Notes under the pieces: generated by a model | Told to the model about the DNA's origin: nothing | Seen by the model: only the letters and a program-made list of their open reading frames with translations | The model's database searches: none | Origin: Candidatus Bilamarchaeaceae archaeon | GTDB taxonomy: Archaea; Micrarchaeota; Micrarchaeia; Anstonellales; Bilamarchaeaceae | Length of the DNA: 64,000 bases | Direction: 5' to 3' | NCBI GenBank assembly: GCA_038870635.1 | Contig: JAVZJR010000002.1 | Location: forward strand, 335 to 64,334 | Shown: positions 40,765 to 44,183 of the stretch, in pieces | Layout: each line of letters starts with the position of its first letter | Numbering within the stretch: position 1 is the first letter of the stretch | Program-made: the position numbers and the translations under genes

Positions 40765-40857
40765 ATATCCCACCAAAATGGGTTTTGGAAAAGAAGGATT
40801 AAAAATAAATCTATCCTTCTAAATGCTACTATCCTGAGATGGTGATAGTGTCATAAC

Positions 40858-40920
40858 TATATATCATAGGGGTAGCGATTGTGTAAACGACGATTCGTTT
40901 ACAGCTCGCTACTGTCATAA
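40858..40920 (+). other. Degenerate copy of the tRNA-Leu(TAG) 5' end folded into a long hairpin
   Basis: tatatatcataggggtagcga vs tgtatatcgcaggggtagcga (18/21 identical); stems gtagcga/tcgctac and tgtaaacga/tcgtttaca. Confidence 0.6.
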
Positions 40921-40948
40921 GAATATAATAACGGTATAATTGTATATC

Positions 40949-41105
40949 GCAGGGGTAGCGAAGATACGTGGTGGTTAAAAAAACTATTGCGTATTGAAAT
41001 GGTCAAACGCGTGGGGTTTAGGACCCCATGGCTTAACATCACCATTGCTTTTTGGCAATGGTTGTGGGCCAAGTGCCTTCGCAGGTTCGAACCCTGCCCC
41101 CTGCA
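40949..41105 (+). tRNA. tRNA-Leu(TAG) with two non-canonical introns: D-loop (about 40964-40999) and variable arm (41036-41072)
   Basis: Removing both inserts gives a cloverleaf congruent with the two intronless Leu tRNAs in this window; anticodon TAG at 41019-41021. Confidence 0.88.
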
Positions 41106-41246: not shown

Positions 41247-41308
41247 TTAAAAATCTTGTTATGGGAGAATACTCTAATCTTTTAAATATTTTATATTCTA
41301 AAAAGTGT

Positions 41309-42523
41309 ATGCGTTTTCTTGTCATTTCACTTATTTTTTTATTTATGAGCATAACGTATGGCCAAAACTTTTCCAGTGAAGATGTAATAAAAAAAATGTA
41401 CTATGATAATTTTGCTAATACCTCCATTAATGATTTCATAATTGTTGAAGGAAGCAGTTTAAGTACAACCGAAGTTGCTGCAATAGAATATTTTAAAGTT
41501 CAATATCGTGATTTTCTTTCTTATTATACTCCTCTTAATGATTCAGAAAAAACATTTGATGTTATAGAAAGCGCAACCAGAGAAAAAGTGATAGTTCTTA
41601 TTGGCGGACCAACCCAAAATAAAATATCGGAAAAAATAGTTTCATTAGGTTGGGTTAAAGAAGATAGTAAAATAAATTACTATGGTTTTATTGTTCAAAA
41701 CGGTACAACCCCAAAAGGAGCAAAGATATACATTGTTTCAGATAATAAAGGTTACAGCAACTTGCCCAGAAAAAGTTTAGAATATTCCCCTCTTGCATCT
41801 TTTGTTCCACGGGAATACGTACCCGCGGCAGCAACAGGAATAAGTTTTATTTTTCTTCATCTATTGAATTTTTTTCAAACTGTTATTGAAGAGTTTTTAG
41901 GGGAATTTGCAAAGAAAGAAAAGAAAAATGAAAATAAAAACGAAAGCAAAATAAAGAAATATGGCTTGGAATTGTTTTCCTTTGTTTTAGCCTCTTTTGT
42001 TCTTGCATTAGGTATAACTTGGACATTCATAGGTTTAAGCCGAAGTTTTGTCTTTTATTTTATTCTTAATTTTATAATTTGTTTTTTCATTATTCTAGTC
42101 TACGACGGCTTTAGATGGATTGGTGCAAAAATAATTAAAATTCCTGTGCGTTATGTATTTTGGCCAAGTGGTGCAATAATAACTTTTGTAAGTAGTTTGC
42201 TTGGGAATCCCTTTGGTCTTGCAGGAGTTTTGGTTGAAGAAACAGAGAATATAAAAGAAAGATGGAAAACTGGTATTATGAATTTAGGAGCATCTTTTTT
42301 CACTATTTTTGTTGCACTTATATTTTTCATATTAAACTTCTTTTTTCCTTCTGAATTTTTTCAAAGTATATTCAGCGCGTCCTCAACCATAGCCATGGTG
42401 AGTATGCTTCCTATCGGTTCTTTGGGCGGAAATGAAGTAAGAAAATGGAATTTTTTTGCTTGGTTTTTTAGTTTTGTTTTTATTAGTGGTGTCTACATTG
42501 TAATAACTTTTTTAATTGTATAA
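41309..42523 (+). CDS. Membrane protein: N-terminal exported domain plus M50-peptidase-like TM domain lacking catalytic residues
   Basis: Signal-like MRFLVISLIF; VLIGGPTQN; TM domain FWPSG..LAGV..MLPIGSLGG, with YDGFR where HExxH is expected. Confidence 0.6.
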   Translation: MRFLVISLIFLFMSITYGQNFSSEDVIKKMYYDNFANTSINDFIIVEGSSLSTTEVAAIEYFKVQYRDFLSYYTPLNDSEKTFDVIESATREKVIVLIGGPTQNKISEKIVSLGWVKEDSKINYYGFIVQNGTTPKGAKIYIVSDNKGYSNLPRKSLEYSPLASFVPREYVPAAATGISFIFLHLLNFFQTVIEEFLGEFAKKEKKNENKNESKIKKYGLELFSFVLASFVLALGITWTFIGLSRSFVFYFILNFIICFFIILVYDGFRWIGAKIIKIPVRYVFWPSGAIITFVSSLLGNPFGLAGVLVEETENIKERWKTGIMNLGASFFTIFVALIFFILNFFFPSEFFQSIFSASSTIAMVSMLPIGSLGGNEVRKWNFFAWFFSFVFISGVYIVITFLIV

Positions 42524-42573: not shown

Positions 42574-42645
42574 GCCTCCGTAGCTCAGCGGTAGAGCGCC
42601 CGCTTCGTAAGCGGGATGTCGGGGGTTCAAATCCCTCCGGAGGCT
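42574..42645 (+). tRNA. tRNA-Thr(CGT), intronless
   Basis: GCCTCCG/CGGAGGC acceptor; CCCGC-TTCGTAA-GCGGG; TTCAAAT T-loop. Confidence 0.96.
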
Positions 42646-42658
42646 TTTTAGTTATTCT

Positions 42659-42862
42659 TACTGTTTTCTTGGCTTCTTACTGTTTTCTCTGTATTTCTAA
42701 TGTTTTCTATGTGCCGTTTCTCCAGTATTCATCGGTGCCGGCAGGGGTTTTTATGTTTTCTACTGTATTCTTGGCTTCTTACTGTTTTCTCTGTATTTCT
42801 AATGTTTTCTATGTGCCGTTACTCCGGTTTTCAGCGGTGCCGGCAGGGGTTTTTATGTTTTC
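42659..42862. repeat. Tandem duplication, 2 x 102 bp
   Basis: Copies 42659-42760 and 42761-42862 are near-identical, with differences clustered in a ~15-nt central patch. Confidence 0.9.
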
Positions 42863-42880
42863 TCCTATTTTCATTGCTTC

Positions 42881-43018
42881 TTACGAAGCCTTTGACTTCT
42901 ATCATCTCATGGCAAAGGCTTACGCTCACCCAAACCCTAAGGTGTTCTATCTGTTTATTTTTTATTTACGAAGCCTTTGACTTCTATCATCTCATGGCAA
43001 AGGCTTACACTCACCCAA
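42881..43018. repeat. Two 53-bp palindromic direct repeats separated by a 32-bp spacer
   Basis: 42881-42933 and 42966-43018, 1 mismatch; each has a 9-bp inverted repeat aagcctttg/caaaggctt around an 18-nt loop. Confidence 0.9.
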
Positions 43019-43079
43019 TGGAGGTGGTTTTAAGAGGTTTAAGTCACCTTTTTAAATCTTCACGAGCTACAAAAAGAAC

Positions 43080-44183
43080 ATGGTAAATTTTTTTGTGTTA
43101 GAGGGGGTTATACCTGATTTCATTCTTTCTCTCTTAAAAGGACTACCAGGAGGGGATTTAGTTTTTTTTCTTTCTCTACTTATTCTTGTATATTTAATAG
43201 TTTTTATTATCCTTAAGATAGTCTTAACGATACTTAAGTTTTTAAGTAGCAAAACAAAAACAACGCTTGATGATGATCTACTCAGAGTAGGTGAAAAATA
43301 TTCGCATTTTTTTGCTATTCTTTTTTCAGTTTTCTTATCATTACAAACAGTTTATCCAAATTTGATTTTAGGCAAATATGATGAGACACAGGTTTTCATA
43401 ATTCTTTTTCTTGGTCTTTTATCATTTTTTATAGCTGAGATACTGGATACTATATTAGTTTGGTATGGAATGAGCATTCAACCTCCTGAGAGGAAAAAAA
43501 TTTCACCAAAGCAAATATTTCCATTTGTGCGTACTCTGATTAAAGCAGCAGTGCATCTGATATTCCTTATTTTTATATTGCAATTTGCAGGTTTTGATAC
43601 CGCTGCTCTTCTTACTGGATTGGGTGTAGCTGGTTTAGCAGTGGCTTTGGCACTTCAAGATACACTTGGAAATTTCTTTGCTGGCATTCACATATTAATG
43701 GATAAACCTTTTAGAGAAGGTGATTATATACAGATGGATAATGGAATGGAGGGCACAATTGATCGTATTGGCTGGAGAACAACAAAAATAATTACCCCAG
43801 ATAACAATGAACTAGTGGTGCCAAATTCAAAACTCTCAAATGCGATAATAAAAAATTTTGCAACACCTGATAAAAAAGTGCTTGTTTTTTACGAAATTGG
43901 TGTCTCTTACGATAGCGACCCAGATGAAGTAGAAGATGCAATTCTTAAAGTTATACAGCGAGTCGCAGAGAAAAACACAAATCTTGATCCATCTAATGCT
44001 TTTGTGAGACTCCAACAATTTGGCGATTTTGCATTAATATTTCGCTTTGGTTATCATGTGAATGGTTACTCCAACCGTTTTCCTGTGCTTAGAGAAATAA
44101 ACAAAGAACTGTTAAAAGAGTTTAGAAAGAGAAAGATAGAGATACCCTTCCCAATAAGAACAGTTATAACGAAGAAAGACTAA
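43080..44183 (+). CDS. mscS: Small-conductance mechanosensitive channel (MscS family)
   Basis: LGVAGLAVALALQDTLGNFFAG, DKPFREGD, IGWRTT, VVPNS, IEIPFP. Confidence 0.93.
   Translation: MVNFFVLEGVIPDFILSLLKGLPGGDLVFFLSLLILVYLIVFIILKIVLTILKFLSSKTKTTLDDDLLRVGEKYSHFFAILFSVFLSLQTVYPNLILGKYDETQVFIILFLGLLSFFIAEILDTILVWYGMSIQPPERKKISPKQIFPFVRTLIKAAVHLIFLIFILQFAGFDTAALLTGLGVAGLAVALALQDTLGNFFAGIHILMDKPFREGDYIQMDNGMEGTIDRIGWRTTKIITPDNNELVVPNSKLSNAIIKNFATPDKKVLVFYEIGVSYDSDPDEVEDAILKVIQRVAEKNTNLDPSNAFVRLQQFGDFALIFRFGYHVNGYSNRFPVLREINKELLKEFRKRKIEIPFPIRTVITKKD

Follow-up and report, generated by a model that had tools for sequence, protein, structure and literature searches.

The tRNA-Leu(UAG) Locus

The window analyzed in this work, a stretch of 64,000 nt, belongs to a Micrarchaeota genome (G000) of 859 kb in 8 contigs, with a G+C content of 35% and a completeness of 89.6%. 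It contains a working tRNA-Leu(UAG) gene at 40949-41105 (Table 1) whose D-loop and variable arm are interrupted by introns. The gene is missed by the default tRNA finders; the intron mode of ARAGORN spans it and mis-assigns its identity. Its exons are defined by orthologues in relatives, one of them intron-free (G005) and another with the D-loop intron only (G002). The neighbor on the upstream side is a divergent gene for serine hydroxymethyltransferase (SHMT). On the downstream side a tRNA-Ser gene stands about 7 nt away, directly followed by an ORF of 420 residues (41261-42523, + strand) without a Pfam match. Farther on, two hairpin-plus-T-run units of about 102 nt and further modules of the dispersed arrays (42646-43020) abut the 3′ end of a tRNA-Thr gene (42574-42645); the ORFs listed there (42669-42980 and 42700-43086) are probably spurious.

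The feature of interest lies between the SHMT gene and the tRNA. There, the end of the tRNA leader and the first 13 nucleotides of the tRNA are present a second time, offset by 83 nt from their working counterpart, and the two 21-nt copies agree at 18 positions. Within the tRNA part of this dead stub, nt 3-13 are identical to the gene (11/11), and nt 1-2 read AT in the stub vs. GC in the gene. The 11-mer common to the two occurs at these two sites only in the 859 kb genome, and the score of the repeat alignment was reached by none of 2000 shuffles of the upstream 135 nt (local alignment). Outside the tRNA part the likeness of the leaders is modest: 15 of 18 positions match, TGTCATAA being included in this stretch, with a shuffle p of ~0.016. 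Stub and gene are separated by a gap of 70 nt that holds no ORF.

Nucleotides 7-13 of the stub are locked in a hairpin of two helices in which every pair is Watson-Crick. Folded as RNA, this hairpin has a calculated energy of −19.5 kcal/mol (z = −4.5); folded as DNA, it has −13.9 (z = −6.2). None of 200 shuffles equaled it. Its 3′ arm is the exact reverse complement of the stub (40872-40878) and of nt 7-13 of the working tRNA (40955-40961) at the same time. The 8-nt motif TGTCATAA stands after this hairpin and again after a smaller one farther upstream, which is probably a part of the ancestral tRNA-Leu leader. Much of this anatomy had been described in the original prediction: an 18/21 copy of the 5′ flank and first tRNA nucleotides some 83 nt upstream, a 16-bp two-helix hairpin at 40872-40912, the complementarity of its 3′ arm to tRNA positions 7-13, and a common sequence after both hairpins. 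All of these were borne out, and the smaller hairpin, placed there at 40828-40849, needed a slight correction of its coordinates. A comparison of 40828-40920 with Rfam gave no match at the gathering score, the matches with E up to 10 being at chance level. The AT-rich stretch in the present leader may serve as a promoter, to judge from its position. Read from the outside toward the gene, the arrangement is a copy of the gene end, a perfect hairpin, the complement of the copy, a linker, and the true tRNA; it is referred to below as the cassette.

Table 1. Features of the tRNA-Leu(UAG) locus and of the other cassettes in the same genome. Positions are those of the window unless G000 is named.
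Feature	Position (strand)	Description	Basis
Small leader hairpin	40829-40848 (+)	5-bp arms 40829-40833 / 40844-40848, 10-nt loop	
First TGTCATAA motif	40849-40856 (+)	8 nt, after the small hairpin	Identical to 40913-40920
Direct-repeat copy 1	40858-40878 (+)	Leader end followed by the dead tRNA-Leu stub (nt 1-13)	18/21 identity to 40941-40961
Dead stub	40866-40878 (+)	tRNA-Leu nt 1-13, nt 1-2 altered	
Two-helix hairpin	40872-40912 (+)	Outer helix of 7 bp (40872-40878 / 40906-40912), inner helix of 9 bp (40882-40890 / 40895-40903), CGAT loop, internal loop TTG/GC; sequesters stub nt 7-13	
Inner palindrome	40882-40903 (+)	Member of a repeat family dispersed across the genome and the order	
Inverted copy of tRNA nt 7-13	40906-40912 (+)	3′ arm of the outer helix	
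Present leader of working tRNA-Leu	40913-40948 (+)	Second TGTCATAA (40913-40920) and AT-rich, TATA-like stretch (~40921-40932)	
Direct-repeat copy 2	40941-40961 (+)	Leader end plus nt 1-13 of working tRNA-Leu	
Working tRNA-Leu(UAG) gene	40949-41105 (+)	Introns in D-loop and variable arm	ARAGORN intron mode; partial Rfam tRNA match; orthologues in G005 and G002
Asn, CAU, and Glu cassettes	G000 C1:77122-77360 (−), C1:157311-157560 (−), C2:97261-97470 (−)	One or two upstream stub-plus-hairpin units each	

The Ancestral 5′ End

The question of which copy is the older one can be approached by comparison with the sister species G005, which has the same divergent SHMT gene upstream of its tRNA-Leu(UAG) and no cassette. 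Its tRNA starts 93 nt from the SHMT ATG; the corresponding distances in the window are 104 nt for the stub and 187 nt for the working gene. The small hairpin also has a counterpart upstream of the G005 tRNA, with its middle pair changed on both sides. The spacing and the small hairpin thus indicate that the stub marks the old start of the gene, and the comparison makes the working 5′ end, together with its AT-rich leader, the added copy. Nor is there a cassette at the tRNA-Leu(UAG) genes that were examined in two other genomes, G002 and G003. It may be added that the 50-nt spacer between tRNA-Leu and tRNA-Ser of G005 (L022, reverse strand) contains a hairpin whose core and CGAT loop are the same as in the window.

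The idea of a decayed tRNA duplication, one of those raised in the original prediction, can now be narrowed. The part that stands is a partial duplication covering the leader end and nt 1-13; a decayed whole gene is not what we see, since nothing past nt 13 resembles the tRNA. The same prediction held that a lack of conservation in relatives would speak against it, and on this point the outcome is divided: the orthologous locus of G005 is without the cassette, but the architecture is widely recurrent.

Cassettes at Other tRNA Genes

Four of the 34 tRNA genes checked in G000 (Leu, Asn, CAU, and Glu) have an upstream copy of their own 5′ end. The tRNA-Asn cassette comprises three copies of a 33-nt unit with two different hairpins between them; the CAU tRNA cassette has nt 1-17 followed by a hairpin and a linker, and the tRNA-Glu cassette is made of two 45-nt units. 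At these three cassettes, a short motif after the hairpin equals the reverse complement of tRNA-Leu nt 7-15. A CRISPR-like reading of the repeat-hairpin-repeat units was considered and rejected, the "spacers" being palindromes common to several loci and genomes.

The same layout is present in relatives, with at least 12 cassettes among G001, G011, G100, G006, G003, G022, G088, G090, G072, and G078; these genomes were sampled via motif searches and the prevalence figures are therefore biased. In at least 12 cassettes besides the one in the window, the 3′ arm is the exact inverse of the adjacent gene-end sequence. In G001, which is of the same genus, and in G011 of another genus, perfect repeats of ~50 nt flank the hairpin, the repeat consisting of the leader and nt 1-13 of tRNA-Leu(UAA). 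The 3′ arm of this hairpin complements the stub, and, as read from the sequence, 1-2 nt of microhomology mark the join between the inverted copy and the re-copied leader. A tRNA-Leu cassette of a third genus (G100) is arranged in the same way. All four of the tRNA-Leu cassettes, that of the window included, break at nt 13 and have a common internal loop, TTG(A)/(A)GC; their inner stems differ. A degenerate pattern search returned true Leu cassettes in these 4 of 176 genomes, its other matches being mostly coding-sequence noise.

Beyond tRNA-Leu, cassettes at tRNA-Ser (as in G006), tRNA-Gly, and tRNA-Val genes are found in two families of the order, with an end copy of 9-17 nt, a complement of 5-11 nt, and a linker of 4-39 nt. 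A short linker motif recurs across genera and beside tRNAs of different kinds. At tRNA 3′ ends there are three mirror-image cassettes with the outside-to-inside polarity unchanged, which argues for a process at the level of DNA. In another genus, three species have the hairpin beside the same tRNA-Ser; it stands at the 5′ end of the gene in two of them and at the 3′ end in the other. Such presence and absence, together with the shifts between the 5′ and 3′ ends among species, indicate that the placement of cassettes turns over quickly. Downstream of the tRNA-Leu(UAG) gene of G023 (L026, ~506-640), tandem 57-nt repeats each end in the last 8 nt of the tRNA; they are a 3′-end analogue with no obvious perfect hairpin.

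Could the hairpin be a binding site on DNA, that is, a palindrome recognized by a protein as part of a promoter or insulator arrangement in the space between SHMT and the tRNA genes divergent from it? An inverted repeat as perfect as this one (9-4-9), located between divergent genes, would suit such a role, and the hairpin core is conserved across genera. We nevertheless regard it as very unlikely. The duplicated tRNA end and its inverted copy are left unexplained by it, cassettes employ several unrelated hairpins whose half-sites differ from one cassette to another, and no T-tract follows hairpin 40872-40912, which for this reason is unlike an archaeal terminator.

The Cassette in the Transcript

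The original prediction had proposed that the leader acts in cis on the folding and splicing of pre-tRNA-Leu. Partition-function folds of the precursor point the other way. The 3′ arm is predicted to pair with the stub over 6.9 of its 7 bp and with the real tRNA over 0.0-0.07 of 7. The predicted acceptor stem hardly changes, at 5.6 of 7 bp with the stub in the transcript and 5.8-5.85 without it, and the pairing of the stub with the 3′ acceptor strand amounts to 0.18 of 7. What the folding predicts is a self-contained, inert hairpin that barely alters the folding of the tRNA. An RNase P RNA was found in the genome (87 bits, exceeding the family cut-off), so the leader can simply be cut off.

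A wider version of this idea would have the hairpin and stub transcribed with the tRNA as a functional 5′ leader, for processing, stability, or regulation, or as a stable small RNA. We consider it unlikely, and the arguments on its behalf deserve a closer look. The repeat around it has diverged, yet the hairpin remains perfect, which could reflect selection. Where the linker measures 4-16 nt, transcription of the tRNA can start only from a promoter lying ahead of the stub, and the hairpin must therefore be transcribed there. The structure is also kept with different sequences in the four Leu cassettes: their alignment shows both-sided changes at 10 of 16 pairs, with 89% of the cells paired and one cell G-U. 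Covariation in related genomes had been proposed as a check in the original prediction, and such both-sided changes were indeed found; however, they are expected of a DNA palindrome by construction, and a set of four cassettes is too small, and its members are possibly too closely related, for a genuine test. The absence of G-U pairs from the core stems (in the whole-cassette folds, 16 of 250 pairs are G-U) also speaks against an RNA function, as does the nearly nil interaction predicted with the tRNA. A leader of importance to the tRNA would, moreover, be hard to reconcile with the sporadic occurrence of the Leu cassettes, with their being missing at the syntenic G005 locus and in the examined G002 and G003 genes, and with the mirror-image copies at 3′ ends, which would yield different RNAs.

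The stub could also be, or have been, a real 5′ exon joined to the body of the tRNA by the splicing endonuclease, left over from the transposition of an intron or from a split tRNA. This reading, which the original prediction had put forward as well, we find extremely improbable. It draws on the position of the cassette, 2 nt from the D-loop intron site of tRNA-Leu(UAG), and on the many non-canonical introns and the broad-specificity endonuclease of the Micrarchaeota (PMC3239211). It draws further on the roughly tenfold enrichment of perfect hairpins of at least 8 bp in or just upstream of tRNA genes: 8 of the 76 such hairpins in G000 lie inside a tRNA gene or up to 150 nt upstream of one, in ~1% of the genome, and three of the tRNA-associated ones lie in introns. 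At a low probability, this enrichment keeps alive a link between palindromes and the gain of introns. As a separate observation, tRNA introns with perfect 8-9 bp Watson-Crick hairpins in the style of the cassette ones are present at 41041-41062 of the window and at C1:157338-157450 of G000.

Several results, however, are at odds with an exon. A scan of stub plus gene for splice motifs, defined as two cuts one repeat period apart with a fully paired 4-bp central helix, found none with its cuts inside the stub and the gene, the scan being a permissive and weak one. The stub used as a 5′ exon would give an A1/C72 mismatch, and the gene downstream is complete as it stands. A genome-wide search for a split-tRNA 3′ partner with a complementary leader returned ends of repeat arrays only. 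At 20 sampled loci the hairpin core was in no case located within a tRNA gene, and a reverse transcriptase was not found in G000. Together, the results at the RNA level count against a leader switch, an exon, and a split gene; a stable RNA derived from the leader may still be produced.

Dispersal of the Hairpin and the Search for Enzymes

The inner hairpin is a member of a large family. Of 176 genomes in the order, 78 contain a 14-nt hairpin core (at most one mismatch allowed), in 1-37 copies each, and the reversed control was near zero. At least 6 of the 20 sampled core loci are within ~60 nt of a tRNA gene. G000 itself has 3 copies of the core and 7 related copies. The two core copies besides that of the window also have the CGAT loop and adjoin tRNA genes, and the seven related ones, which are 88% identical to the inner hairpin and its flanks, mark the distal ends of modular repeat arrays found downstream of stable-RNA genes. 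A second hairpin family, with a 9-nt loop, is almost private to G000. Two additional sites in this genome are worth recording (C6:8478-8510 / C6:8840-8876): directly adjoining the 5′ end of one tRNA gene is a perfect hairpin of 8 bp with a T6 run after it, and a degenerate relative of the window hairpin lies 14 nt upstream of another. In relatives of genus g19 (L052, L057, L042, L046, and L051), the core forms the first half of a conserved two-hairpin module within an outer stem; short direct repeats often stand on either side of this module, which is located away from tRNA genes.

A dispersed and enriched core, its frequent proximity to tRNA genes, its variable presence between sister species and between the two ends of the same tRNA-Ser, and the fixed break point and conserved internal loop of the Leu cassettes would suit a mobile sequence. 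It may be envisioned that the palindrome is a non-autonomous mobile element of a REP-, MITE-, or homing-like kind, for which an enzyme acting in trans recognizes the hairpin and the tRNA ends and inserts it, with the gene end being regenerated. We regard this as possible though rather improbable, since the enzyme side of the story is lacking in G000. In this genome, 89.6% complete, there was no match to a Y1 transposase (PF01797), TnpB, a tyrosine recombinase (PF00589), a GIY-YIG nuclease, or the reverse transcriptase already mentioned, and genus g1 gave no GIY-YIG (PF01541) match. The GIY-YIG matches in the family are mostly single genes with frames of ~520-590 aa, a few being shorter or cut, and are read as UvrC, judged by size alone. 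Y1 genes are present in 25 of 98 genomes of the family, including the four richest in the hairpin, but six Y1 loci of relatives carry other, unrelated hairpins. Beyond synteny, no protein recurs beside the hairpin. The lengths of the duplications (8-52 nt), their absence at most hairpin copies, and the use of several unrelated hairpins by the cassettes also weigh against such an element.

A Proposed Origin

We hold with moderate confidence that the cassette is a by-product of events at the DNA level, in which a palindrome lodged in the D-arm region of a strongly transcribed and structure-prone gene, the 5′ end of the gene was regenerated by template switching, and the stub was left to decay. 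The order of events that we infer, with no function for the product, would be as follows. A small palindrome of the family dispersed in the Micrarchaeota would have become inserted in the ancestral tRNA-Leu(UAG) gene, behind nt 13. In the same replication or repair event the polymerase would have switched templates, copying first the inverted nt 7-13, which would be the present 3′ arm, and then the leader end and nt 1-13 once more, which would be the head of the working gene 83 bp downstream. The outcome would be a duplication-inversion-duplication junction. The abandoned stub would be dead, its decay having begun at nt 1-2. The arms would have stayed perfectly Watson-Crick, plausibly through quasipalindrome template switching that homogenizes the arms of inverted repeats. 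Should the old promoter still fire, stub and hairpin would be a part of the 5′ leader and be removed by RNase P.

The templated inverse arm and the microhomology in G001 and G011 are, in our reading, the hallmark of a series of template switches. Template switching at quasipalindromes is especially frequent where DNA is heavily transcribed (PMC3820800) and also homogenizes repeat arms (PMC8604942); perfect stems can in this way be obtained without selection. Against template switching stands the source of the inner palindrome, for which there is no local template: within 3 kb, the inner hairpins of four cassettes have matches of 8-9 nt at chance level only. The break fixed at nt 13 in the four Leu cassettes, the shared TTG(A)/(A)GC loop, and the recurrent linker motif go beyond what copying errors alone would produce. 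These features, together with the palindrome that has no local template, suggest specific recognition by an enzyme or a function.

A further reading, which we consider quite doubtful, is a machinery that inserts small palindromes at fixed positions, 8-17 nt inside either end of the tRNA genes of Micrarchaeota, after which the end is regenerated or the hairpin is kept as a non-canonical intron. If there is such a machinery, the cassettes would be a visible trace of the gain of tRNA introns in archaea. If the cassettes are by-products, as we favor, the tRNA genes of these tiny, repair-poor archaea would be hotspots of complex template switching, and annotators would have to be warned that tRNA stubs in these genomes are not scars of integration. 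If they are instead mobile or functional, they would represent a new target-regenerating element or a new class of leader, and may bear on the origin of non-canonical tRNA introns.

Comparison with Known Systems

A literature search found no published description of the layout of the cassette, and the tRNA-end hairpin cassette is apparently undescribed. It has, nonetheless, likenesses to several known systems. Related to the origin proposed above are the junctions produced by quasipalindrome template switching and the duplication-inversion-duplication junctions (PMC3820800, PMC8604942, PMC7202029). In common with these, the cassette has an inverted copy of the neighboring sequence beside a hairpin at the junction, arms that are perfectly Watson-Crick, microhomology at fresh junctions, and a highly transcribed gene as its site. 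Template-switch events, however, use local templates only and have no fixed break, whereas the cassette has a dispersed inner palindrome, a break at nt 13 in tRNA-Leu, and a conserved internal loop, and for some of its inserted bases no nearby template was found.

The bacterial REP/BIME sequences, which are mobilized by RAYT transposases of the Y1 type, and the archaeal palindromes derived from IS200/IS605 are likewise short, dispersed, extragenic, polar with respect to the strand, and often organized in multi-hairpin modules. The many dispersed copies of the palindrome in the order agree with this pattern. The differences are that a cognate, repeat-flanked Y1 (RAYT) gene is missing, G000 having neither Y1 nor TnpB and the Y1 loci of relatives being associated with other hairpins, and that REP insertion neither duplicates nor inverts its target, whereas the cassette duplicates it. 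A MITE would carry inverted repeats at its ends and duplicate its target site over a fixed length; the duplications here are 8-52 nt long and often absent, and the 3′ arm of the cassette copies the target and is not carried by the element. As for a homing-like element, there is no small GIY-YIG nuclease gene between the stub and the tRNA.

Partial tRNA genes are also left by integrating elements in the form of att duplications (PMC9897764). These enclose kilobases of element DNA together with an integrase. The two copies in the cassettes are 30-70 nt apart and accompanied by an inverted copy, and no integrase was found: G000 has no PF00589 match, and the 70 nt between stub and gene are free of ORFs.

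The systems nearest to the cassette in lineage are the disrupted tRNA genes of ARMAN-2 (Candidatus Micrarchaeum acidiphilum; PMC3239211). The introns of ARMAN-2 lie within the gene and are excised at motifs of the bulge-helix-bulge type, whereas the cassette lies outside a working gene and has no such motif, no pair of cuts across a 4-bp helix that would give a functional tRNA having been found in the permissive and weak scan. A split tRNA gene would have a separate 3′ piece with a complementary leader; here there is no such piece, and the adjacent gene is complete. The likeness is in the setting, since ARMAN-2 has hairpin-rich insertions at non-canonical positions of its tRNA genes, and a hairpin-rich insertion of the same kind is found in the D-loop of this very tRNA-Leu gene.
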